A stretch of 37,224 nt of DNA from IMG/VR virus record IMGVR_UViG_3300029473_000203, one strand, 5' to 3'. The translations under genes were made by a program, and so were the position numbers. The stretch comes from a virus. Its lineage: Duplodnaviria; Heunggongvirae; Uroviricota; Caudoviricetes. Each line of letters begins with the position of its first letter. The stretch's first letter is position 1. Below, piece by piece: positions 4,006 to 36,290 of this stretch. The notes below the pieces were generated by a model. It worked only from the letters and a program-made list of their open reading frames with translations. It made no database searches and had not been told where the DNA came from.

Positions 4006-4232
4006 TGGCTGATGCAATGGATCTCGTACAGCAGCGCGTTGAAGAAGAACGCCAGCGTCATATCCGTGCTGCCCGTGCCAAAACGCCGGGCGTGTCCCGC
4101 GTGCTTTGCATTGAGTGTGAAGCGCCAATTCCGCCAGCACGCCGCCGTGCCATTCCGGGTGTGCAGCTTTGCATTACCTGTCAGGAAATCGCAGAGCTGA
4201 AAGGCAAACATTACAACGGAGGTGCTGTATGA
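4005..4232 (+). CDS. TraR/DksA-family C4 zinc-finger protein
   Basis: CIECEAPIPPARRRAIPGVQLCITCQ gives C-x2-C-x17-C-x2-C; stop overlaps the dam start (ATGA). Confidence 0.65.
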   Translation: MADAMDLVQQRVEEERQRHIRAARAKTPGVSRVLCIECEAPIPPARRRAIPGVQLCITCQEIAELKGKHYNGGAV

Positions 4233-5086
4233 GCACCATCCTGAAATGGGCGGGAAATAAAACCGCCATTATGTCCGAACTGAAAAAGCATCTTCCTGCT
4301 GGCCCGCGACTGGTTGAACCTTTCGCGGGTTCCTGTGCAGTGATGATGGAGACGGAGTACCCCAGCTATCTTGTTGCGGATATTAATCCTGATTTAATCA
4401 ACCTCTATAAAAAGGTTGCTGCTGATTGTGAATCGTTTATATCTCGCGCCAGAGTTTTATTTGAGATCGCAAACAGGGGGGTGGCTTATTACAACATAAG
4501 GCAGGAGTTTAATTACTCAACTGAAATTACTGATTTCATGAAAGCGGTATATTTCCTGTATCTCAATCGTCACGGTTACCGTGGTTTATGTCGCTATAAC
4601 AAGAGCGGGCATTTCAACATTCCCTACGGTAATTATAAAAATCCGTATTTCCCTGAAAAAGAAATTCGCGCATTTGCAGAAAAAGCCCAGCGAGCAACGT
4701 TTATCTGCGCCAGCTTTGATGAAACGCTGGCGATGTTGAAGGCGGGGGATGTGGTGTATTGCGATCCGCCGTATGACGGTACGTTTTCCGGCTATCACAC
4801 TGATGGTTTCACTGAAGATGACCAGTATCACCTGGCATCCGTTCTTGAACATCGGTCATCAGAAGGACATCCGGTCATTGTTTCTAACAGTGATACATCC
4901 CTGATCCGTTCGCTGTATCGCAATTTTACTCACCACTATATCAAGGTAAAACGCAGCATCGGTGTGGCAGCTGGCGAGGGTAAATCAGCAACAGAAATCA
5001 TTGCTGTTTCCGGGCCGCGCTGCTGGGTGGGATTTGATTATTCGCGTGGCGTGGATAGTTCTGCCGTGTACGGAGTACGTGCATGA
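4229..5086 (+). CDS. dam: DNA adenine methyltransferase (Dam family)
   Basis: N-terminal LKWAGNK...PFAGS (SAM-binding) and DPPY motif (CDPPYDG); start moved to ATG 4229 (MSTILKWAG) within ORF track 4169..5086; stop overlaps the repA start. Confidence 0.85.
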
Positions 5087-7497
5087 GCCATGCCGATATG
5101 AACAACTGCTGCGGCTTTAACGAGGCTGCCGCAGCGTTCTCATGGAACAGCCCGAAAAAGGCCATTAACCCTTATCTGGACCCGGCGGAAGTTGCGCCGG
5201 TTTCTGCGCTTTCAAACCTGATCGCTCTGTACGCTGCCGATAACGAGCAGGAACACCTGCGCCGCGAGGCACTGAGTGATCAGGTCTGGGAGCGTTATTT
5301 CTTTAATGAATCCCGTGATCCTGTCCAGCGCGAAATGGAGCAGGATAAGCTCATTAGTCGGGCAAAGCTGGCGCATGAGCAGCAGCGTTTTAATCCAGAT
5401 ATGGTCATTCTGGCGGACGTCAATGCCCAGCCTTCCCATATCAGCAAGCCGCTGATGCAACGTATTGAATACTTCAGCAGCTTGGGCAGGCCAAAGGCTT
5501 ATTCCCGCTATTTGCGTGAGACGATTAAGCCATGTTTGGAGCGACTGGAGCATGTACGCGACAGCCAGCTATCTGCATCTTTTCGTTTTATGGCAAGCCA
5601 TGTAGGGCTGGACGGCCTGCTGATTCTGCCTGAAATGAGTCAGGATCAGGTGAAACGCCTGTCTACTCTTGTCGCTGCGCATATGAGCATGTGTCTTGAT
5701 GCCGCTTGTGGTGATTTGTACGCCACCGATGATGTTAAGCCAGAAGAAATCCGCAAGACATGGGAAAAGGTGGCAGCAGAAACCCTGCGACTGGATGTTA
5801 TCCCGCCTGCGTTTGAGCAACTTCGTCGGAAAAGAAACCGCCGTAAACCCGTGCCCTATGAACTCATTCCGGGTTCGCTGGCGCGTATGTTGTGCGCCGA
5901 TTGGTGGTACCGGAAATTATGGAAGATGCGTTGCGAATGGCGGGAAGAGCAGTTGCGTGCTGTTTGCCTGGTCAGCAAAAAAGCATCTCCCTATGTCAGC
6001 TATGAAGCCGTGATGCATAAACGTGAGCAGCGCCGTAAGTCGCTGGAGTTTTTCCGTTCTCATGAACTGGTGAACGAAGACGGCGACACGCTGGACATGG
6101 AGGATGTGGTAAACGCCAGCAGCAGCAACCCGGCGCATCGCCGCAATGAGATGATGGCCTGTGTTAAAGGTCTGGAGCTTATCGCAGAAATGCGCAGTGA
6201 CTGTGCCGTTTTCTACACTATCACCTGTCCGTCGCGTTTCCATTCCACGCTCAATAACGGCAGACCAAACCCGACCTGGACAAACGCGACGGTAAGACAA
6301 AGCAGCGATTATCTGGTCGGCATGTTTGCTGCATTTCGTAAGGCTATGCACAAAGCCGGGTTGCGCTGGTATGGCGTGCGGGTGGCTGAACCGCATCATG
6401 ACGGCACAGTTCACTGGCACCTGTTGTGTTTCATGCGCAAAAAAGACCGCCGCGCCATTACTGCATTGTTGCGTAAGTTTGCCATCCGTGAAGACCGCGA
6501 GGAGCTGGGCAATAACACGGGGCCACGCTTTAAGTCTGAGCTGATAAACCCGCGCAAAGGTACGCCAACAAGCTACATCGCGAAATACATCAGTAAGAAC
6601 ATTGACGGGCGTGGTCTGGCTGGCGAGATCAGCAAGGAAACGGGTAAATCCCTGCGTGATAACGCTGAATACGTTAATGCCTGGGCGTCTCTGCATCGTG
6701 TTCAGCAATTCCGCTTCTTTGGCATTCCGGGGCGTCAGGCTTACCGTGAACTGCGATTGCTGGCTGGTCAGGCGGCAAGGCAACAGGGGGACAAAAAAGC
6801 AGGTGCGCCGGTACTGGATAACCCGCGCCTTGATGCAATCCTGGCTGCTGCTGATGCTGGTTGTTTTGCCACCTACATCATGAAGCAGGGCGGCGTACTG
6901 GTTCCCCGCAAATATCACCTCATCAGAACTGCTTATGAAATCAACGAAGAGCCGACCGCCTATGGCGATCACGGTATTCGTATTTATGGCATCTGGTCAC
7001 CCATTGCAGAGGGCAAGATCTGCACTCATGCGGTGAAGTGGAAAATGGTTCGTAAGGCCGTTGACGTTCAGGAGGCGGCAGCCGACCAGGGCGCTTGCGC
7101 CCCTTGGACTCGTGGCAATAACTGTCCCCTTGCTGAAAATTTGAACCAACAGGAGAAAGATAAATCAGCTGATGGGGACCCCAGAACGGACATTACCAGC
7201 ATGGATGACAAGGAGTTGCACGATTACCTGCACAGTATGAGCAAAAAAGAGCGCCGGGAACTGGCAGCAAGGTTACGCCTGGTGAAACCGAAACGGCGTA
7301 AAGACTACAAACAGCGAATTACAGACCATCAGCGACTGCAGCTCGTGTATGAGCTGAAGTCCAGAGGATTTGATGGCAGCGAGAAAGAGGTCGATTTACT
7401 CCTTCGCGGAGGCAGTATTCCGTCAGGAGCAGGCCTGCGTATCTTCTATCGGAACCAGCATTTGCAGGAAGATGATCAGTGGCGGAACCTGTATTAA
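5083..7497 (+). CDS. Replication initiation endonuclease (P2 gpA / 186 RepA-like, HUH rolling-circle)
   Basis: 804-aa ORF with HUH-like motif VHWHLLCF and tyrosine pair YIAKYISK; position after the early operon as in P2/186. Confidence 0.9.
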
Positions 7498-7650: not shown

Positions 7651-7839
7651 ATGCAGGACTATTTTTTGGAGTCTTTGAAGCTCCAGCGCATTGATTTTTT
7701 TCTTAAGCTTGTAGCGGCTAGTGAGTGTAGTGATGAAGAGAAGGGGCTGGCTCTGCAGTGGGTTTCTGAATTGACTGATGAACTCATGGCAAAAATCAGA
7801 ACCCACGAATACAACCGCTCAATGGATGTCATCAGCTGA
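7651..7839 (+). CDS. Small SOS-controlled protein (62 aa) of tum-like operon, possible antirepressor component
   Basis: ATG at 7651 preceded by AGGAGG, downstream of the LexA box; the upstream part of ORF track 7549..7839 would cover the operator and is rejected. Confidence 0.5.
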   Translation: MQDYFLESLKLQRIDFFLKLVAASECSDEEKGLALQWVSELTDELMAKIRTHEYNRSMDVIS

Positions 7840-7849
7840 GGTGACTTTT

Positions 7850-8083
7850 ATGCGCATTGAAATAATGATCGATAAAGAGCAGAAGATTAGCCAGTCTACC
7901 CTGGACGCCCTTGAATCCGAGCTTTACCGCAATCTGCGCCCCCTGTATCCCAAAACGGTAATTCGCATTCGCAAAGGTAGCTCTAACGGTGTGGAACTAA
8001 CCGGACTGCAACTGGACGAAGAAAGAAAACAAGTGATGAAAATTATGCAGAAGGTGTGGGAAGACGACAGCTGGCTGCATTAA
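7850..8083 (+). CDS. DinI-like protein (Tum C-terminal-domain-like)
   Basis: MRIEIMIDKEQ...LDALESELYRNL...VWEDDSWL resembles E. coli DinI as I recall it; ATG at 7850 within ORF track 7778..8083. Confidence 0.75.
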   Translation: MRIEIMIDKEQKISQSTLDALESELYRNLRPLYPKTVIRIRKGSSNGVELTGLQLDEERKQVMKIMQKVWEDDSWLH

Positions 8084-8176: not shown

Positions 8177-8860
8177 CTATGATTGAAGAGCAATCTTTCT
8201 CAACGTATCAAATACAATTTTTGTAAAATTATTTTCATTTTTAACGTCAATGTAAGCAAGAGCGTTATTAGTAATTTTAAGTTTACCAGAATACTCTAAT
8301 GAATTAACGGAGCAAACAAGTTTGTCAATTCTTATTTTCTTCCCCTCTAATTCTTCTTTATAATATTTTCTAAGGTCACTGCTGCCAATTATTTGCATTT
8401 TAGCTGTAGCGTAATCAGCGACTCTAACTCTAGAAATATCCAGCTGTGTTAGATTTATATTCACATTTGAAGATATTTCGTTGAGCCAATCCATCGGATT
8501 TATATCAATCTCTTCTAGGCTAACGCCTAAGCCAAGATTTCTGACTAAGGCCTGTGAAAACGGTTTTAACGTTCGCGGAGGGTTAGTAAGTTGCATTATA
8601 GGAAGAGTATCTAAAGATACACTGAAATTAGTAGTGCGGTATTCGACTCTTTCTACGATAGTTTCGCTTCCGTCAAAATTAGAAACTTGATCGTGATAAA
8701 TAATACGCTCAACAAAGCGTCCATGTGCAGAATCATGACGTATTTTATCAAAAATAAACCCTTTCCCCTTATCCTCGGTAAAAGAATCAAGAGAAAGACG
8801 TTTAACAGCTTTTTCAAATTCAAGCCGTATGTTTAATTTGAGCCACTTAACCTTCTTCAT
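8177..8860 (-). CDS. Cargo gene 3 of three-gene operon (227 aa, unknown function)
   Basis: Start overlaps the end of gene 2 by 14 nt; AT-rich by eye; no recognisable motif. Confidence 0.8.
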   Translation of the reverse strand: MKKVKWLKLNIRLEFEKAVKRLSLDSFTEDKGKGFIFDKIRHDSAHGRFVERIIYHDQVSNFDGSETIVERVEYRTTNFSVSLDTLPIMQLTNPPRTLKPFSQALVRNLGLGVSLEEIDINPMDWLNEISSNVNINLTQLDISRVRVADYATAKMQIIGSSDLRKYYKEELEGKKIRIDKLVCSVNSLEYSGKLKITNNALAYIDVKNENNFTKIVFDTLRKIALQS

Positions 8861-9926
8861 GTTCGTTTACCTCTGGTCCTATTATTATATTATAGGCATT
8901 TTCAGCGGCTGACTCAATTAATTCACTAATATGTCTTTTCTCTTGTGCCGTTGCCGCACGAATTGTCACATTGAATCCGTCTTCTTTTTGATTATTTATC
9001 CCTTTAATTTGATAGGCAAAGTCACAGCAATTTTCAGAGTCTTTGAAAAATGCTTCAACGTTAATTCTGTCACCAACTCCACTTGTCGGTTTTGAAGACC
9101 ATGCGATACGGCCTATATAATAACCTTTCTCGTGTAGTTGAGAAAATATAGGCGAACTATTAACACCTTCACCATTCAAAACAGCTTTCTTGACGAATCC
9201 GGTATCGATTGTTTCTTCTTTGTCTTCATCTTCACTTGCGTCAATACTGCGATTTAATTCTACTTTCGTTACATCATCAGTCTCATAACCATGTAGTCCA
9301 TTCATTAACTCTTGAAAGAACTGGCTTCGCAATGTAGGGTCAGTGATTGCCATTAAAGAAATTTCAAAACGTTCAATAGGCTCAGATTTGATTTTAGACA
9401 GCTCGTTTTGCAGACCCTCAATAACTTTTTTTGCCTCAGGATTCTGTGGCATACGTACTTCAACCTTGTCAACACCAGGGCGAAGTTCTATTATGACATT
9501 CCGTTTATCTATTTGACGCAGAGCGGTTTTAGATAAGTCTATTTCTTCATAGTTATATTCTACTGTCAGAGAACCATCTTTTTTCGCTACGATATTCAAG
9601 CTTTGCCCTTTACTGGGTGAACATGTTTTTTTCAATGCTTCAGCTGCGCTCTTTAATTCGGCCTGATTTGTTGTGGTCTGAAAACTCACACTGGTAATGC
9701 TTTCTCTTGGATCATATGTTTTGACCATCTTTTTTATATGCTCTAATTCATTAAAACCATGGGGGAGTTTTGATATTTCCTCGATAAGTATTTCCTTGTC
9801 GAGTTCTGGTGATAAAAAAACACCTCTATTTAGCAATAATTCATGTAATTTTGCAGGGGTTATTCTTTTATGATGCAAAGCATCATAAATATTCTTGTCA
9901 GTCGCAAAGTATAATTTTTTAGCCAT
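8847..9926 (-). CDS. Cargo gene 2 of three-gene operon (359 aa, unknown function)
   Basis: ATG overlaps gene 1 stop (TAATG on minus strand); acidic, Lys/Glu-rich; no Walker motif. Confidence 0.8.
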   Translation of the reverse strand: MAKKLYFATDKNIYDALHHKRITPAKLHELLLNRGVFLSPELDKEILIEEISKLPHGFNELEHIKKMVKTYDPRESITSVSFQTTTNQAELKSAAEALKKTCSPSKGQSLNIVAKKDGSLTVEYNYEEIDLSKTALRQIDKRNVIIELRPGVDKVEVRMPQNPEAKKVIEGLQNELSKIKSEPIERFEISLMAITDPTLRSQFFQELMNGLHGYETDDVTKVELNRSIDASEDEDKEETIDTGFVKKAVLNGEGVNSSPIFSQLHEKGYYIGRIAWSSKPTSGVGDRINVEAFFKDSENCCDFAYQIKGINNQKEDGFNVTIRAATAQEKRHISELIESAAENAYNIIIGPEVNEHEEG

Positions 9927-10927
9927 TATCGTTGCTCCATCCCAATTTTTTCAAGATTATATTCAACTACAACTTTGTCTGTCTTTTCGAAGTCAAATTT
10001 AAGAAAAAGTCTTTCATCCTCACCTAACAGCCAGTCTGTACTGTATTTCTTTTTAGCTTTTTCAAAATGATGAATAGCATTTTCATTTGGATGGATATGA
10101 CAATGACGTAATAAAATTGGTTTGCCTTCAGTGAGTATCTGATAAGTTGATAGCATGTCAAAAAAGTACACGAATTCATCTAATGAATCACCGGGTTGAT
10201 TGTAATAAACAACATACCCTTCTGGGATATCTTTTTTAAGCCAGCTAAAAGCCTCATGTTTAATTATGATGTATGGCGATGTTAATAATTCAATTGTCGC
10301 AGGTGTTGTTTGGTTGATGGGGTGTTTTATTCTTGTTAAAGAAAGATCTGGGTAATAGTAAGTAAACTTATCAGGCTGTGGAAGTTTTCCAGAGCCTATT
10401 AATTTGGTTATGTCAGAGGATATATTTATTAAATCAGATATTTTATAGGGGTCAAGTAAGTGTAGTTTTATGTTTGGAGGACAATTTATAACGGAATGAT
10501 CTAATTTTTTTGTAATATTTTCATAGAAATCTTTATCATATAGATTATCATGATTATACAAAAATAACAAACCTCTTACATTATAACCTAAAGAATCATC
10601 ATGAACGTATTTCAATCGCCACTCTTTACTTACATTCGCACACTCGGTAGCTAAAGCAAGTGAGGTTAAGGCACCTTCGACCATTTTTTTACCAATAGAT
10701 CCCTCCGCATAGCTCTTTAGATCTGTATTGAGATAGACCATTTCCTCTTCATAAGGGTCTGTGTAGAAAAATACAACATCACTTGGATGGGTTTTCTTGG
10801 AATGTACCTCTTGGCAACATTCCCAATTCATGTCCGCTCTAGCGGCGCGATCCCATTTGAATACAGAGAAAATATCATCAGAAATTTTACCTGCGACTCG
10901 TTGTATAGCCGAAGTTTCTCCACCCAT
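9926..10927 (-). CDS. Cargo gene 1 of three-gene operon (333 aa, unknown function; possible nuclease-like motifs)
   Basis: ATG at 10927 with AAGGAG RBS; tentative PD-(D/E)xK-like pattern (VVFFYTD ... MVYLNTDLK) and a His/Cys-rich patch RHCHIHPNENAIHH; no Walker A. Confidence 0.8.
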   Translation of the reverse strand: MGGETSAIQRVAGKISDDIFSVFKWDRAARADMNWECCQEVHSKKTHPSDVVFFYTDPYEEEMVYLNTDLKSYAEGSIGKKMVEGALTSLALATECANVSKEWRLKYVHDDSLGYNVRGLLFLYNHDNLYDKDFYENITKKLDHSVINCPPNIKLHLLDPYKISDLINISSDITKLIGSGKLPQPDKFTYYYPDLSLTRIKHPINQTTPATIELLTSPYIIIKHEAFSWLKKDIPEGYVVYYNQPGDSLDEFVYFFDMLSTYQILTEGKPILLRHCHIHPNENAIHHFEKAKKKYSTDWLLGEDERLFLKFDFEKTDKVVVEYNLEKIGMEQR

Positions 10928-11145
10928 TTTATAATCGCTCCTTTAAAATTGCTGTGGCAATCTGCCATTAAATCCATCTGATTTGATGTGTAATCTAACC
11001 GTATGGTTTGTATGTGTTTGTTGCATGACTATAGCGCATGAAAATGCATGATCGCAAAGGGATCGTTTATGTCTAGGCACTCCAGTTCTGGAGAGGCTTT
11101 GAAGAGTTCATGCGATTGCATGAAAACCACTATGTGAAGTGAGCA

Positions 11146-11164
11146 GGCGTGGCGGGGATACGAG
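11146..11164. other. cos-like cohesive-end site
   Basis: GGCGTGGCGGGGATACGAG; the first 13 nt match the 186 cos sequence GGCGTGGCGGGGAAAGCAT as I recall it; lies in a 325-bp intergenic gap a few hundred bp upstream of the ParA-like gene. Confidence 0.45.
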
Positions 11165-11261
11165 CGCGCGCATTGAGTTAAAATTTCTTGAGTTGATGAA
11201 AATAAGATGTATTTTAATTTGGCACAGAAAAACCTAATAACTCACAAGGATAATGATAATA

Positions 11262-12188
11262 ATGCAAATAGTTTCCATCATAAATTATAAAGGTGGCGTT
11301 GGTAAAACAACAGTTACGTCTAATTTAGCCGCTGAATTAGCATTCCGAGGAAAGAATGTTTTAGTTCTGGATATGGATGCTCAGGCAAGCCTGACATTTT
11401 CGTTTCTAACTCCCGATTATTGGGATGAACATCTTAAAAATGAAAGGACCATTAAAAACTGGTTTGATTGTATTAGTCAGGGAGAGCAAACAATGCCTCT
11501 TTCGACTCTAAGAGTACGACCTGAACCTGTTAATAGTAGATTTGATAGAAAAGGTGGATGTTTGGATTTAATATCTTCCCACCTCGGGTTGATAAATGTT
11601 GATCTTGAGCTTGCGACTCTTCTAGGAGGGGCTAGCCCCAGTCAAACTCAAAAAAAATATCTTAAAGTTCATGGTAAACTTAGAGAGGAACTTCAAATAC
11701 TAGCTGACGAAATGAATTATGATGTTGTTTTAATTGATTGTCCACCTAACTTTAATATCGTAACAAAAAATGCTTTGATTGCATCAGATAAGATTTTGAT
11801 ACCAGCAAAACCTGATTATTTGTCAACGCTAGGTATTGATTATTTAAAAAGAAGCGTAGATTCTCTAGTTACAGACTATAATTTCTATGCCGATAAAGAT
11901 GAAGATTATGAAAGGGTATCTCCTGAGATTCTCGGAGTAGTTTTTACTATGATTCAAATTCATTCAGAACAACCTATTGCCGCGCAAAGACAGTATATTG
12001 CGCAGACAAAACGTCTAGGTGTTCCCGTATTTGATGCTATTTTTAGGGAGAATAAAACTATCTTTGCTGATGCCCCTAGAGATGGAATTCCTGTAGCATT
12101 AATTGGCTACTCGCATTCAACTCACTCTTCTATTGTAGGAGAGATTGAGGATTTTGTTGATGAATTCCTTCAAAAGATTGGAGAATAA
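11262..12188 (+). CDS. ParA/MinD-family P-loop ATPase
   Basis: Deviant Walker A KGGVGKTT near the N-terminus, VLVLDMDAQASLT, VVLIDCPPN; AT-rich; possible start at 11253 or 11262. Confidence 0.8.
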   Translation: MQIVSIINYKGGVGKTTVTSNLAAELAFRGKNVLVLDMDAQASLTFSFLTPDYWDEHLKNERTIKNWFDCISQGEQTMPLSTLRVRPEPVNSRFDRKGGCLDLISSHLGLINVDLELATLLGGASPSQTQKKYLKVHGKLREELQILADEMNYDVVLIDCPPNFNIVTKNALIASDKILIPAKPDYLSTLGIDYLKRSVDSLVTDYNFYADKDEDYERVSPEILGVVFTMIQIHSEQPIAAQRQYIAQTKRLGVPVFDAIFRENKTIFADAPRDGIPVALIGYSHSTHSSIVGEIEDFVDEFLQKIGE

Positions 12189-12190
12189 AA

Positions 12191-12586
12191 GTGAGTAAAG
12201 CTAAAACTTTAACTGTGCTATTTCGTGAATTACAAGATGCAGTTCTTGAACTCAATGAAGGGGAATTGGAAAAAATTATTTCGGGCGAGTATCAATTCGT
12301 CCTTAAGGTAGTTAAAAAACGTAATAGTACTGGTGCAAAGATAAGTTCAGTAGATAATTTTAGCTATAACGAATTGCTTGTTTTACTTAACCAGTGTGAG
12401 TCAAGAGAACAAGGTTGCGAGCTTTTGTCGCGTGAGCTTAAGACTAAATCTGAGTTTGAAAAATTCGCTCGTCATGTCGAGGTCGCTGTAATGAAAAGCG
12501 ATAAACTCGAGAAAATTAGAGATAATATTATTGAGTCGACAGTAGGTGCTAAACTCCGCTCTGATGCTATTCAGAATAAAAAGTAA
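12191..12586 (+). CDS. Small partner protein (131 aa) of the ParA-like ATPase, unknown function
   Basis: GTG start 2 nt after the ParA-like stop, with GGAGA upstream; charged, helical-looking sequence. Confidence 0.6.
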   Translation: MSKAKTLTVLFRELQDAVLELNEGELEKIISGEYQFVLKVVKKRNSTGAKISSVDNFSYNELLVLLNQCESREQGCELLSRELKTKSEFEKFARHVEVAVMKSDKLEKIRDNIIESTVGAKLRSDAIQNKK

Positions 12587-12589
12587 TTA

Positions 12590-12612
12590 ATAGCCGCCAA
12601 TTTGGCGGCTAT
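12590..12612. terminator. Palindromic hairpin between convergent genes (candidate bidirectional terminator)
   Basis: ATAGCCGCCA / loop / TGGCGGCTAT perfect 10-bp stem flanked by T-rich sequence; sits between the 131-aa gene and the portal gene 3' ends. Confidence 0.55.
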
Positions 12613-12615
12613 TTG

Positions 12616-13644
12616 TCATAGTTCATAGTTCGTAAAATTAATGACATTTTCGCCAAGCCACCTATTTAACTCTTCTAATCGTTTCTGAAGAGGCAATAGT
12701 TCATTACGTACAAAAACCTTACTAGCCTTCTCCACATCCCCAAAACCCCCAACATTATTCGGCATAATCCCCATCATTTGTGGCGGCACACGATGCGCAG
12801 CCATCATGTCATCCCGGCTCACGTTCTTGATATTCAGAAACTCATCCTTCGCCGCGACCTCTGACAACGGGATAATCTGAAGCCCGTCCTTTTTGCCGTT
12901 AGGCGAGTACATAAACAGGTTGCGGAAGTTACCCGGTCCTTTGGCGCTTTTCATCGCGTTGCGGAGGTTGTTCACGTCCTCCTGGTTCTGCGCGGCATCG
13001 GTCATGTACATGATGAAGCCAGCATGACTGCCGTTTATGTAATACTTTCGACGGAACAGCGTGGCGGACTCATTGAGCAGGGCGGACGGAATAGCAGAAA
13101 GATAGCCGGGCAGGCCATAGATCTCCTGATTTATGTCCGGTTCCATCAGATGGAAAATGCTGCCTTTCGTGAACTGATACGGCTGCGTGGTCATGCCGTA
13201 TTGCACAAACCAGTAGGTATCCAGGTCTAACCCGCGTCGGGTGTATTTGGCCAGTGCAGGCTCAAGGGCGATAACTTCACCGAATCGGTTCGTGCGTTTC
13301 TCAAGGTAGGCGTTACCAAATACCAGATAGTCTTGCACAAAACGTGAAAAAGCCTGCTGGCTGAGCAGCGGGTGAGGGATATAGGTGCTGGTCAGAATGT
13401 TGCACTTTACTGCAATCGGTGAGCTGTGGTGTACGGCGGCGCGGAAGGTTCGCGCCAGTCCGTCGAAACTCACAGGCGGCTCATACCAGCGATCCATCTG
13501 TACGCATTCCACATAGTCCAGCAGTTCACGACGGTCCAGAACAGGAACGGGATCGCCGAAGCTGAATGCTTCGGCTGAAGTCTGGCTTTTATGCTGGATC
13601 TGATTCATCGCCGCTACGCGGTTTTTTTTACTCTTTCCCATCAA
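12616..13644 (-). CDS. Q: Portal protein (P2 gpQ-like)
   Basis: 342 aa, size and position as P2 Q, downstream of and overlapping the terminase gene on the same strand. Confidence 0.9.
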   Translation of the reverse strand: MMGKSKKNRVAAMNQIQHKSQTSAEAFSFGDPVPVLDRRELLDYVECVQMDRWYEPPVSFDGLARTFRAAVHHSSPIAVKCNILTSTYIPHPLLSQQAFSRFVQDYLVFGNAYLEKRTNRFGEVIALEPALAKYTRRGLDLDTYWFVQYGMTTQPYQFTKGSIFHLMEPDINQEIYGLPGYLSAIPSALLNESATLFRRKYYINGSHAGFIMYMTDAAQNQEDVNNLRNAMKSAKGPGNFRNLFMYSPNGKKDGLQIIPLSEVAAKDEFLNIKNVSRDDMMAAHRVPPQMMGIMPNNVGGFGDVEKASKVFVRNELLPLQKRLEELNRWLGENVINFTNYEL

Positions 13645-25268: not shown

Positions 25269-25700
25269 ATGGCTTATTTTTATTCAGCATTAAATAACGC
25301 TTTCTACCCTGATGAGCTCAGAGATGTTTATGAAGCGAGTAGAAACTGGCCTGACGATCTCATAGCCGTCTCAGATGAGACATTCACTGAATATTCGGGG
25401 ATGCCACCAGAGGGTAAAACTCGTGGAGCTACTGAGGATGGAATGCCGGCATGGGTAGACATTCCACCTTTAAGCCATGAGGAGGAAATCGCAGCAGCTG
25501 AAGCTGAAAAACAGTATCGTATCGATCAGGCTAATGAGTATATAAACAGCAAGCAGTGGCCGGGTAAAGCTGCGCTGGGGCGACTTACAGACGACGAGAA
25601 GGCCCAGTATAACGAGTGGCTGGATTATCTCGATGCGCTGGAATCTGTGGACATATCCAGCGCACCAGATATCAACTGGCCTGAGTCGCCGGAGGAGTAG
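25269..25700 (+). CDS. Tail fibre assembly chaperone (P2 gpG / Tfa-like)
   Basis: N-terminus [16 protein letters not shown] typical of the Tfa family; directly after H. Confidence 0.8.
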
Positions 25701-26091
25701 GCCAGTCCGGGTCTGCTGTATCAACTCGCATCAGCAGCACCCGGTATTTTTTCCATTCGGCTAATGAAACAGTTTCTTCTTCCGTCGCGATCCCCGCATC
25801 AACGGCGTCCTGCCGCCATTCTATTTCAGAGTCAGCTGAAGCACGCAGTCGCGATTTTTCGGCTTCTGCCAACGCAATAATTTCCTCTTCAGTTGGTTCG
25901 GGAATATCTATCCATTCAGGTAAACCATCAGAATTAGGAGCGCGTAATTTTCCGTTAGGTGATTCTCCGGCAAACTCAACGAATACGGAATAGTCTACTT
26001 CAACGGCATCGTCAGGCCAGCTACCTGCATTTTCATAAATACTTTTTAGCTCATCAGCGTAGAACGCATTTTCTTTTGCAGAATAAAACAT
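25672..26091 (-). CDS. Alternative tail fibre assembly chaperone (tfa') of the inverted orientation
   Basis: N-terminus [14 protein letters not shown] parallels the plus-strand Tfa; its 3' end overlaps the tfa 3' end convergently (25672-25700). Confidence 0.75.
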
Positions 26092-26096
26092 ATTAA

Positions 26097-26444
26097 TCAC
26101 CATCCAATCGCGAAAACTCTAAAGCCACCGTAGCCAGCACATGTAATCTGAGTTCTTGTTACCGTCGTATAGTATGATCGGCCCACCGCTAAGCTATATG
26201 CGGCTGTAGAACTCAAATCAACTGCCCCAGTTGATACATCACTAAATAACGGAATCATGCACTCATTTGGGAATGCAATAGGGAAATTCGCAGTTACTGG
26301 TGTCACATAATCAGTTGTAGCAGCACCAAACCACTGCAATATGATCACCCGTTCTTTCCCGGCGACCATTGCCGGGATAGTCATATAGCCTGTAGAGCCG
26401 GTCACACACACCGCTGCGCCTAATTTTGCTCCCTCTCCCAAACC
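26097..26444 (-). other. Alternative tail-fibre C-terminal cassette (start-less; fused to H constant part after inversion)
   Basis: Minus-strand frame ...NVGLGEGAKLGAAV... ends GFRVFAIGW, compared with the current H end GFNYFAVGY; the reading frame is continuous with H across the crossover core. Confidence 0.65.
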
Positions 26445-26458
26445 AACGTTTATGAAAA
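26433..26458. repeat. Invertase crossover site (gix/cix-like), right, just upstream of the invertase gene
   Basis: Reverse complement TTTTCATAAACG-TT-GGTTTGGGAGAG; shares the GGTTT(A/G)GGAGA half-site and TT core with the left site. Confidence 0.6.
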
Positions 26459-26513
26459 TGCAGAGATAATGGCTAACTGGCATCATCCCCGGTTTTTATT
26501 CAGGGGATTGATC

Positions 26514-27080
26514 ATGCTTATTGGCTATGTACGCGTGTCAACAAATGACCAGAACACCGATTTGCAACGTAATGCACTGAACTGCGCGGGATGTGAGCGG
26601 ATTTTTGAGGACAAAATCAGTGGTACTAAGTCCGACAGACCGGGGCTTAAAAAACTGCTCAGGACACTATCGGCAGGTGACACACTGGTTGTCTGGAAGC
26701 TGGACAGGTTGGGGCGCAGTATGCGGCATCTTGTTACTCTGATAGAAGAGTTGCGCCAGCGCGGCGTGAATTTCAGAAGTCTGACTGACAGTATTGATAC
26801 CAGTACCCCAATGGGCCGTTTCTTTTTTCATGTCATGGGTGCCCTGGCTGAAATGGAACGCGAACTGATAGTTGAACGTACCAGGGCAGGGCTGGCTGCA
26901 GCTCGTGCTAAAGGCAGAGTAGGTGGACGCCGTCCTAAGTTGACTACCGAACAGTGGGCACAGATTGGACGTTTACTCGAGGCCGGAGAATCAAGACAGC
27001 GTATTGCACTGATTTTTGATGTGGGCGTTTCTACCATTTATAGAAAATTTCCGGCGAATGAGAACAATGAATCGCCCTGA
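26514..27080 (+). CDS. Serine recombinase DNA invertase (Gin/Cin/Hin/Pin family)
   Basis: N-terminus MLIGYVRVSTNDQNTDLQ with catalytic-Ser context, C-terminal HTH; ATG at 26514 within ORF track 26469..27080. Confidence 0.9.
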   Translation: MLIGYVRVSTNDQNTDLQRNALNCAGCERIFEDKISGTKSDRPGLKKLLRTLSAGDTLVVWKLDRLGRSMRHLVTLIEELRQRGVNFRSLTDSIDTSTPMGRFFFHVMGALAEMERELIVERTRAGLAAARAKGRVGGRRPKLTTEQWAQIGRLLEAGESRQRIALIFDVGVSTIYRKFPANENNESP

Positions 27081-34604: not shown

Positions 34605-36290
34605 TTATCCTAATCCTGGCCATACCATGACGATGATTGTCCCTGCCAGCGTCAGCAGGACGTTGGCGATTGCATAGGTGCCCGCATAGCCCAGCGCCGG
34701 GATGTTACTGCGAGCTGTATCACTGATGATCTCCATTGCCGGCGCGCAGGTACGTGCGCCCATCATTGCGCCGAACAACAGCGCGCGGTTCATTCGCAAT
34801 ACATAAGCACCGAACAAGAAACAGATAACCACGGGCACCAGACTGACAATCAATCCGGCAATCAACATCTGACCGCCAATCGCGCCCAAGCCGTTATTAA
34901 TACCGCTACCGGCGCTCAGACCAACGCCTGCCATAAACACCATCAAGCCGAACTCTTTCACCATGCTTAATGCACCCTGCGGAATGTAACCGAAGGTCGG
35001 GTGGTTAGCACGCATAAAGCCCAGCATAATTCCGGCGAATAACAACCCGGCAGCGTTCCCCATGCCGAAACTGAATGTGCTGAACTGGAAGGTGATCATC
35101 CCGATCATCAGCCCAATAACAAAGAAGGCGCAAAATGCCAGCAGGTCAGTGACCTGGCTGTGAATCGAGATAAAGCCGATGCGATCGGCGATGGTTTTTA
35201 CGCGACGGGCATCACCGCTGACTTGTAAAACGTCACCTTTGTTAAGCACGACGTTGTCATCTATCGGCATCTCAATCTGGCTACGAATGACGCGGTTAAG
35301 GAAGCAACCGTGATCGGTCAACTTCAGTTGTGCGAGACGTTTACCTACAGCGTTATGGTTTTTAACGACCACTTCTTCAGTGACGATACGCATGTCGAGA
35401 AGGTCACGATCGAAAACTTCTTTACCGTTACGGAAGCTGGGATCGAGTCGGGCATGGGCGTCGGGATAGCCTACCAACGCTATTTCATCGCCCATTTGTA
35501 GCACGGCATCACCGTCTGGATTTGCCAGAATCCCGTTACGTCGAATACGTTCAATGTAGCAGCCGGTTTGTCGATAAATACCCAGTTCACGCAGATTTTT
35601 GCCGTCGGTCCAGGCCACCAGCTCCGGGCCGACGCGATAGGCGCGGATCACCGGTAAATAAACCTTACGGTTGGCATCAGTGTCCAGGCCACGTTCGCGG
35701 GCGATTTGCTGGGCGCTGGTCTGTAAGTCCTGATGCTGCAATTTCGGCAAGTAACGCGCACCAACAATCAAACTCACCAGACCGATTAAATAGGTTAAGG
35801 CATACCCGAGGCTCAGATTATCCAGTGCCAGTGAGAGCTGCCTGCTTTCCATGCCGGAATGACGCAGTGTATCGCCAGCACCGACCAGAACCGGTGTCGA
35901 CGTCATAGAGCCTGCTAACATACCGGCCGTCAGGCCAATATCCCAGCCAAACAGCTTACCTAACCCTAAGGCGATCACCAGCGCACTGCCAACCATCACC
36001 AGTGCTAACATTAGGTAATTTTTCCCATCGCGAAAAAAAATGGAAAAAAAGTTCGGTCCGGCTTCAACCCCAACACAGAAAATAAACAGCATAAAGCCAA
36101 GATTAAGCGCATCGGTGTTAATGCTGAAATGTTGTTGGCCTAATAACAGCGATACGACTAAAACGCCAATGGAATTACCCAGTTGGATCGAACCAAGTCG
36201 TAACTTTCCGAGACATAGCCCAAGCGCGAGGACCACAAATAATAACAGAATGTAATTCCCATTTAACAATTCGGCGACGTTTATATTCAC
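34605..36290 (-). CDS. ybjL: Putative transporter YbjL (host gene)
   Basis: 561-aa polytopic membrane protein with a central soluble region; matches E. coli YbjL by size and remembered sequence. Confidence 0.85.

Follow-up and report, generated by a model that had tools for sequence, protein, structure and literature searches.

Introduction

ParA/MinD ATPases position chromosomes, plasmids, the divisome, flagella, chemoreceptor arrays, and carboxysomes. Members of the ParA family form sandwich dimers with ATP and, in that state, bind the DNA of the nucleoid; a peptide of the cognate partner stimulates ATP hydrolysis through a key Arg or Lys, and the cargo is set by the adaptor. Here, we describe a two-gene pair, a ParA-type ATPase and a partner of 131 amino acids (aa), which lies between cos and the portal gene Q of a P2-like prophage of the Fels-2/186 type in the IMG/VR virus record IMGVR_UViG_3300029473_000203; the whole stretch of 37,224 nucleotides (nt) is referred to below as the window.

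Some ParA proteins of islands and integrative elements act otherwise than by partitioning their own replicon. ParI (PP_3700), an orphan ParA of a Pseudomonas putida KT2440 genomic island, destabilizes IncP-7 plasmids, for which its ATPase is required (Miyakoshi et al. 2012). In ICEclc, a ParA and a small protein, Shi, are encoded at the element end and arrest growth and division; the ParA sits on the nucleoid, growth arrest needs its Walker A motif, and Shi is HicA-like, with secondary structure as in HicA toxins (Takano et al. 2019; PMC6812849).

In P2-like phages, the gpA-cos-Q interval has been defined as a defense hotspot (Rousset et al. 2022). Table S5A of that study contains exactly the arrangement of the window (WP_063123439 and WP_000030309 together with the 3HP genes), and Table S5B lists the ParA pair as system #129, with 19 occurrences and without annotation; we found no sign of system #129 among the systems assayed there. 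The genes are already catalogued, then, as an unannotated hotspot system, and the ATPase class is known. What is new here is that the size, phyletic spread, obligate pairing, and autonomy of the family are now delimited, and that the pair is allelic with retron, AbiU, and PIN cassettes in the slot between cos and Q. We put the chances at about even that the pair is a stand-alone conflict module (defense, exclusion, or anti-plasmid) and does not partition the prophage.

Results

A widespread two-gene family

A preliminary description of this DNA, made from the sequence alone, had treated the pair as a possession of a P2-like phage. It instead represents a stand-alone family of gene pairs that is very widely distributed. 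In a scan of one genome per species, the subfamily ATPase was present in at least 583 species, and the best 80 loci, on which the locus counts below are based, are 52-93% identical to the query and span ~14 phyla. These loci include Alpha-, Beta-, Gamma-, and Deltaproteobacteria, Myxococcota, Actinomycetota, Cyanobacteria, Bacteroidota, Ignavibacteria, Verrucomicrobiota, Planctomycetota, Acidobacteriota, Gemmatimonadota, Spirochaetota, Bacillota, Chloroflexota, Saccharimonadales, and others. ATPases 67-97% identical to that of the window are found in Vibrio, Aeromonas, Shewanella, Pseudoalteromonas, a betaproteobacterium, and Desulfobacteraceae. The subfamily is set off by a clear identity gap: its members share at least 49% identity, whereas all other ParAs from plasmids, phages, and viral contigs reach at most 34%. 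Among 1.84 billion representatives, a profile of the partner retrieved 944 clusters (50% identity; E <= 1e-3), and the proteins are almost without exception 125-145 aa long.

A partner homolog directly follows ParA in 79 of the 80 loci, and the lone exception is at a contig end. All-against-all clustering of neighbors found no third conserved gene; as no neighbor family occurs in more than 4/80 loci, a conserved third gene or cargo was rejected. Compared pairwise, ParA sequences are on average 57% identical and partner sequences 27%, and the two measures correlate (r = 0.63). Ratios of nonsynonymous to synonymous substitution (dN/dS) are 0.02-0.11 for ParA and 0.07-0.22 for the partner, so both genes are under purifying selection; given these low ratios and the hundreds of homologs for each gene, the pair of open reading frames (ORFs) is not a chance one. 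Altogether, the 79/80 pairing, the lack of a third gene, the identity correlation, and the dN/dS values define a co-evolving two-gene unit in which the ATPase is very constrained and the adaptor evolves faster. The pair is an autonomous module spread by horizontal transfer.

The partner was found on none of 72,556 plasmids. The full-length subfamily ATPase was likewise absent from this set, where the lone match, on a Vibrio plasmid, was a fragment with 45% coverage, and no full-length plasmid ParA exceeded 34% identity to the window ATPase. Neither protein occurred in any of 50,697 phage genomes, a set that includes phage-plasmids. Seven of 2.9 million viral contigs carry the ATPase, and the three P2-like ones are two degraded remnants and one apparently intact prophage. 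Because the family is widely spread yet essentially missing from plasmids, the distribution favors a conflict module over a DNA-partition system.

The ATPase and its partner

The ATPase ORF at 11253-12188 (+) carries NYKGGVGKTT and matches AAA_31 and PHROG 164, as expected from the ParA-like ATPase with KGGVGKTT that had been reported from it. The ORF is present in full from 11253 (311 aa), but its start is more likely the ATG at 11262 (308 aa), which is used by RefSeq and at which 22/22 aligned subfamily sequences begin MxI/V..(V/I)INYKGG. Matches were Pfam AAA_31 (7.6e-36; 124 bits against a cut-off of 27), CbiA (2.2e-19), and PHROG 164 "ParA-like partition protein" (8.6e-47), and the protein scored far under the cut-off of every named NCBIfam equivalog, including RepA, ParA_partition, MinD, SopA, and BcsQ.

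The features that define ParA/MinD (SIMIBI) ATPases are all present, namely KGGxxK[ST], the signature lysine, the Walker A' and Walker B aspartates, and a ParA-type fold. K10 is the signature lysine and K15 the catalytic lysine (NYK10GGVGK15TT), and Lys10, Lys15, D37/D39, and D159 are invariant in the 22 aligned subfamily members. The best structural matches are ParA 8ray, McdA, delta, ParA2, and pNOB8 ParA, although no solved ParA is more than ~27% identical in sequence. Thus, of the earlier label "ParA/MinD-type," the deviant Walker A ATPase stands, while the modeled fold places the protein in the nucleoid-type ParA clade and not with MinD. Past the Walker A' region (Asp37/Asp39 motif), the ATPase also has 50 inserted residues that are conserved, and the family is acidic (median pI 5.5).

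The partner (12191-12586, +; 131 aa) begins with a GTG 2 nt past the TAA stop of ParA, the spacing first described. Its pI is 8.5, and its family is basic (median pI 9.0). It has no match in Pfam, NCBIfam, PHROG, or PADLOC and represents an uncharacterized fold family. An AlphaFold2 model (predicted local distance difference test score, 81.8) gives helices H3-19, H23-30, H56-67, H72-82, H86-95, and H106-129, so the protein is predicted to be all-helical. A ParB-like partner had been raised as one possibility, and no ParB or ribbon-helix-helix (RHH) fold was found. In the model, an N-terminal helical hairpin is joined by a disordered Lys-rich linker (45-54) to a C-terminal helical domain and a conserved tail.

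Conservation in the partner family is uneven. The N-terminal half is variable and fast-evolving, while the C-terminal half follows the consensus SRExG...L...K..LE..AR.LD.PV.K.DK....R.KIIEATVGARLRS.AIQG., which reads like a helix-extended-helix (HeH/SAP-like) motif followed by the tail. In the tail (T117-x-G119-x-x-L-R123-S124-x-A126-I127), T117, G119, R123, S124, A126, and I127 are nearly invariant. The C-terminal unit behaves as an independent domain, since some relatives have two or three copies of it in tandem.

The cassette and its slot in P2-like prophages

Both genes are AT-rich, as had been noted (GC 0.35-0.39 versus ~0.55 in the phage backbone), and they form a compact cassette. The cassette-specific upstream region (11173-11261, +) is not common to the 75%-identical cassette copy in Escherichia coli XH988. 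It contains a candidate promoter that can be read as TTGAGT (11188-11193), a 16-nt spacer, and TATTTT (11210-11215), although this scored below the threshold of a consensus scan, along with a direct repeat of TTGAGTT at 11173 and 11188. AAGGA (11246-11250) precedes the ParA start, and GGAG (12180-12183) is ahead of the partner GTG. The palindromic terminator that had been proposed is a perfect 12+12, terminator-like hairpin at 12589-12613, flanked by the stop codons of the partner and of portal gene Q (12616); it is common to the cassette (+) and the converging Q (-). The cassette has its own terminator and probably its own promoter.

The placement between cos and the portal gene also holds. 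The cos-like (cohesive-end-like) sequence GGCGTGGCGGGGATACGAG at 11146-11164, which we take to resemble the cohesive ends of P2 and 186, sits in a stretch (11022-11172) that recurs widely in P2-like prophages, and this places the ParA pair between cos and Q. This P2-type cos region forms the left edge of the cargo slot and is also matched in Fels-2-like and Klebsiella P2-like phages. When 10928-12620 was used as a query, 1,178/5,426 complete E. coli genomes were matched, almost all via the cos flank alone. By sensitive blastn, the cassette itself is present in 8/5,426 genomes and always on the chromosome; the five copies whose context was examined lie in P2-like prophages or the XH988 island, and none is P4-like. 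The pair is therefore a rare, swappable cargo rather than a core P2 gene pair and is dispensable for P2 morphogenesis, in agreement with the initial suggestion that it is accessory.

In the kind of neighborhood comparison that had been proposed, other P2-like prophages hold other cassettes in the slot between cos and Q. Prophages with the same 3HP and cos flank carry a retron St85 effector and reverse transcriptase (L149, 4246-6351), a 422-aa unknown (L148, 5353-6621), or an LPO_1073-family cassette (L150, 3799-4911). Those with a more divergent cos flank carry a nucleotidyltransferase cassette (L151, 3766-5396) or a PIN-domain cassette (L152, 3720-5367), and in Fels-2 the slot is occupied by the 565-aa protein STM2723.1 (L103, 3218-4915; PADLOC AbiU, 2.7e-112). 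The slot is hypervariable and exchanges defense cargo. Several of the cassettes in sister prophages are themselves without assigned function, and the cargo is transcribed toward Q in every related prophage compared.

On the other side of cos from the ParA pair, and inside the same AT-rich hotspot, three genes (8177-10927, -) make up a complete Rst_3HP anti-phage system (PADLOC Hp1, 9e-234; Hp2, 1.5e-245; Hp3, 5e-144). Several prophages have 3HP without the pair, and the pair occurs without 3HP elsewhere (17MR471, XH988, and Klebsiella), with strain 17MR471 carrying it beside a different upstream cargo. As each occurs without the other, the pair was rejected as the fourth and fifth components of Rst_3HP.

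A second, unrelated ParA-like protein (MKIISIFNNKGGVGKS...) is found with a RelA_SpoT protein in P2 hotspots (Rousset et al. 2022, Table S5B, rows 110/129), and it served as the cluster representative for the system #129 ATPase. It carries the KGGVGKS Walker A variant, as ParI does, and may be another non-partition ParA of P2 hotspots.

Genomic contexts outside the window

Where neighbors are annotated, the pair occurs in integrative elements, in defense islands, which are frequent, or as a lone insertion amid housekeeping genes. In integrative elements of Salmonella, E. coli XH988, and Vibrio, the pair directly follows a tyrosine integrase at the element edge. The Salmonella and E. coli XH988 islands are mobilizable, with relaxase, TraD, and pilin genes and TcpC/TIR/macro cargo, and integrative mobilizable elements of Pectobacterium carry the pair with Cap4-nuclease and AAA_21 cargo. 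In the Pectobacterium islands (L012-L015, 6094-6993), a 299-aa ORF without a Pfam match is directly 5' of the pair on the same strand; it was seen in no other context of the pair. In Vibrio (L137-L141, 5182-11327), the pair is directly downstream of a complete QatABCD, and this block recurs in five different outer contexts. One Desulfobacteraceae contig has the pair amid Eco29kI restriction-modification genes, methylases, a HATPase protein, and an M78/HTH pair, and one islet has it with HEPN-MNT, ParE/Phd, an insertion sequence, and a WYL protein.

Degraded P2 remnants in Klebsiella (L004-L009; L104 and L105 are alike) occur in >1,500 assembly blocks. They have lost most structural genes and retain int, OLD, CI, ParA, the partner, and a portal fragment, with the OLD nuclease adjoining the pair. 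ParA is intact at 5/6 of the Klebsiella places shown and split into two ORFs in the sixth (L008). The remnants have the same ybjL-side site as the window prophage, and this recurrence of a ybjL-like neighbor suggests an attachment site shared across genera.

Across the 80 loci, scattered defense or mobile neighbors include C5 methylases, Mrr, UvrD, AAA_21, DndB, AbiEii, AbiTii, IS110, and PADLOC candidate families. The association with defense is strong in Gammaproteobacteria and in the phage slot; it is moderate overall, given that, by a rough estimate, only ~15-18/80 loci have defense-type neighbors.

Other features of the prophage

The remaining genes of the window follow a P2-like order. 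An integrase (1-1209, -) and CI repressor (1449-2105, -) precede a Dam methylase (4169-5086), the replication protein gpA (5083-7497), and a small hypothetical gene with DinI (7778-8083). Beyond the slot, portal Q (12616-13644, -) is followed by terminase P, scaffold O, capsid N, and tail genes. The prophage is flanked by a host gene for a ybjL-like permease (Asp-Al_Ex/TrkA_C; 34605-36290, -). At 25672-27080, 3' of the tail-fiber genes, a Gp53-like_C tail-fiber tip (26097-26486) and a Caudo_TAP assembly protein (25672-26103) are encoded on the opposite strand, and a 203-aa ORF (26469-27080, +) adjoins this second tip; the segment looks like an invertible host-range segment.

Discussion

A possible conflict module

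Genomic context favors a defense or exclusion role for the pair. The family shows an unusual combination of properties: it is sharply bounded, strongly conserved, always paired, essentially off plasmids, and recurrent in defense hotspots. We infer nucleoid binding, ATPase stimulation, the target, and a defense phenotype from the behavior of the ParA family. As an accessory module, the pair is self-contained, akin to the other lysogen-expressed cargo of the cos-proximal P2 hotspot. The ATPase may be a ParA-type ATP switch that dimerizes on ATP via Lys10 and binds the nucleoid, and the basic partner may be its dedicated adaptor and activator, with the tail TxGxxLRSxAI (Arg123) contacting ParA to trigger ATP hydrolysis. 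Recognition of the target, probably DNA, would fall to the fast-evolving N-terminal half of the partner and to its HeH/SAP-like domain. Since there is no enzymatic effector, the output would have to be ParA-type, and we envisage interference with competing DNA (infecting phage or plasmid), which the pair might mis-position or sequester, or else arrest of the host cell cycle. ParI and ICEclc ParA-Shi, respectively, set precedents for these two kinds of output.

Several observations weigh against a conflict role. The pair has no recognizable effector domain (nuclease, NADase, pore, or protease). No PADLOC v2 defense model matches it at full length, and in PADLOC-DB v2 the ATPase has only a 34-residue match to PDC-M28B; as this match is confined to Walker A, membership in PDC-M28B was rejected. 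At the 80 loci, most of the nearest two genes to the left and right of the pair have housekeeping functions, and at several loci the pair is a solitary insertion between housekeeping genes. A PADLOC-type match within two genes was counted at ~15-18/80 loci, a rough estimate from per-family tallies with no matched control. One family copy among the best 80 (L087) is on a 138-kb Segatella "plasmid," and the depletion from plasmids is only modestly significant after allowing for database composition. Finally, only about a third of the hotspot candidates assayed by Rousset et al. (2022) were active.

A bolder form of the conflict reading is that the pair is the first ParA-family ATPase to serve as an immune or exclusion device, an effector-less two-gene module across ~14 phyla; this is a serious possibility that we advance tentatively. 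A nucleoid-bound switch with a fast-evolving adaptor would mis-position, exclude, or destabilize invader DNA or halt the cell cycle, and the protected carrier would be a prophage, island, or chromosome. A literature search for a ParA-type defense system found none. If a defense or anti-plasmid role is correct, the pair would represent a class with a new mechanism, whose output is the ATP switch itself without any enzyme effector, and one of the many unassigned types of P2/P4 hotspot cargo would be explained.

Alternative explanations

There is a small chance that the pair works as an anti-plasmid incompatibility device of the ParI type, upsetting ParA-dependent partition in plasmids that enter the cell or in satellites maintained as plasmids, such as P4. 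ParI provides the precedent of an island ParA acting against IncP-7 plasmids, and the subfamily is essentially missing from plasmids, as would be expected if carriage harms a plasmid; however, that depletion could be a sampling effect. The ~1.1 kb parI gene also differs, encoding ~365 aa with KGGVGKS and no described partner, and because no plasmid ParA resembles the window ATPase by more than 34%, the latter has no obvious cognate to mimic.

We give a similarly small chance to a host cell-cycle arrest of the ICEclc ParA-Shi type on element activation (induction or excision), acting against loss or for better transfer. ParA-Shi is likewise a ParA with a small protein at an element end, the integrase-adjoining location of our pair in integrative mobilizable elements is similar, and without an effector domain the output would again come from ParA itself. 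However, Shi is HicA-like, whereas the window partner is modeled as all-alpha and unrelated; most family members are outside recognizable mobile elements; and the cassette seems to be transcribed from a promoter of its own and not within a late or transfer operon.

An unusual partition or maintenance system for an excised or episomal prophage or mobilizable element, with the partner as centromere-binding protein, is improbable; if true, it would reveal a new centromere-binding fold. The predicted ATPase fold does belong to the nucleoid-type partition ParAs, and the partner is basic, with a C-terminal motif like those of HeH/SAP DNA-binding domains. The position of the pair directly after a tyrosine integrase at the edge of the Salmonella, E. 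coli XH988, and Vibrio elements is, we presume, similar to that of Soj in PAPI-1. Plasmid-like upkeep of P2-like phages has also been raised, though for StbA/Plasmid_stab_B (system #1), the putative partition system of a quarter of P2-likes, and not for this pair (Rousset et al. 2022).

Our results argue against partitioning of an excised or episomal element and so agree with the initial view that plasmid partition was unlikely. Both proteins at full length are absent from the plasmid and phage sets described above, and no iteron-like array was found in 11173-11261. Repeats are not enriched upstream of the pair at the 80 loci (median z 0.4) relative to control-gene upstream regions (0.29). A tyrosine integrase was found within 10 kb at only 7/80 loci with an iterative hidden Markov model search, leaving 73/80 without one, and ARAGORN placed a tRNA near the pair in 10/80; on these counts, a general link to integrative elements was rejected. 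In addition, the pair is kept intact in non-excisable remnants.

Known partition types fared no better. Type Ia (P1 ParA/F SopA) was rejected because there is no N-terminal helix-turn-helix extension, no ParB/SopB, and no repeats; the Walker A motif begins at residue 10, so the ATPase has no N-terminal domain. Type Ib (ParF-ParG, pB171 ParA-ParB, and delta-omega) was rejected in the absence of an RHH partner, upstream repeats, and plasmid carriage. Classical partition as a whole was rejected, with plasmid, phage, and repeat searches all negative.

Least probable of all is a housekeeping-type positioning of cellular cargo (like McdAB or ParC/ParP) that hitch-hikes on mobile DNA: many loci do lie amid metabolic genes and ParA is very strongly conserved, but there is no conserved neighboring cargo gene, the family is distributed very patchily, hotspots and defense islands are repeated sites of the pair, and the window ATPase has the signature lysine that McdA lacks (SGGQGKT in a published table).

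Comparison with known systems

Type Ib ParA-ParG/ParF, delta-omega of pSM19035, and McdA-McdB are like the window pair in having a deviant Walker A ATPase followed by a small basic partner in a two-gene operon, and type Ib and delta-omega also share the signature lysine. Unlike type Ib-type ParAs, the window ATPase has 308 aa with the 50-residue insertion and at most 34% identity to plasmid and phage ParAs, and the window partner, unlike theirs, is modeled as all-helical and lacks RHH and ParB domains. The window pair is also without centromere repeats and is not found on plasmids. McdA is nonetheless among the best structural matches of the window ATPase; the two differ in the signature lysine, and the carboxysome operon neighborhood of McdA-McdB has no counterpart in our family, which has no conserved neighbor.

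The other cargo of the P2 hotspot (old, tin, Rst_3HP, retrons, and AbiU) is similar in its gpA-cos-Q location and its organization as an AT-rich cassette with its own signals, whereas the ParA pair is without homology to any of it.

Neither ParI nor ICEclc ParA-Shi belongs to the same family as the pair, though both resemble it in some respects. ParI is a ParA borne on a chromosomal island that acts on another replicon rather than partitioning its own; by description, it is a longer orphan protein with KGGVGKS, whereas the window ATPase has 308 aa, KGGVGKT, and a partner in 79/80 loci. ParA-Shi combines a ParA and a small protein near the end of an integrative element with a non-partition function, and it differs, again compared by description, in its HicA-like Shi versus a helices-only partner and in that the window pair is also found outside mobile elements.

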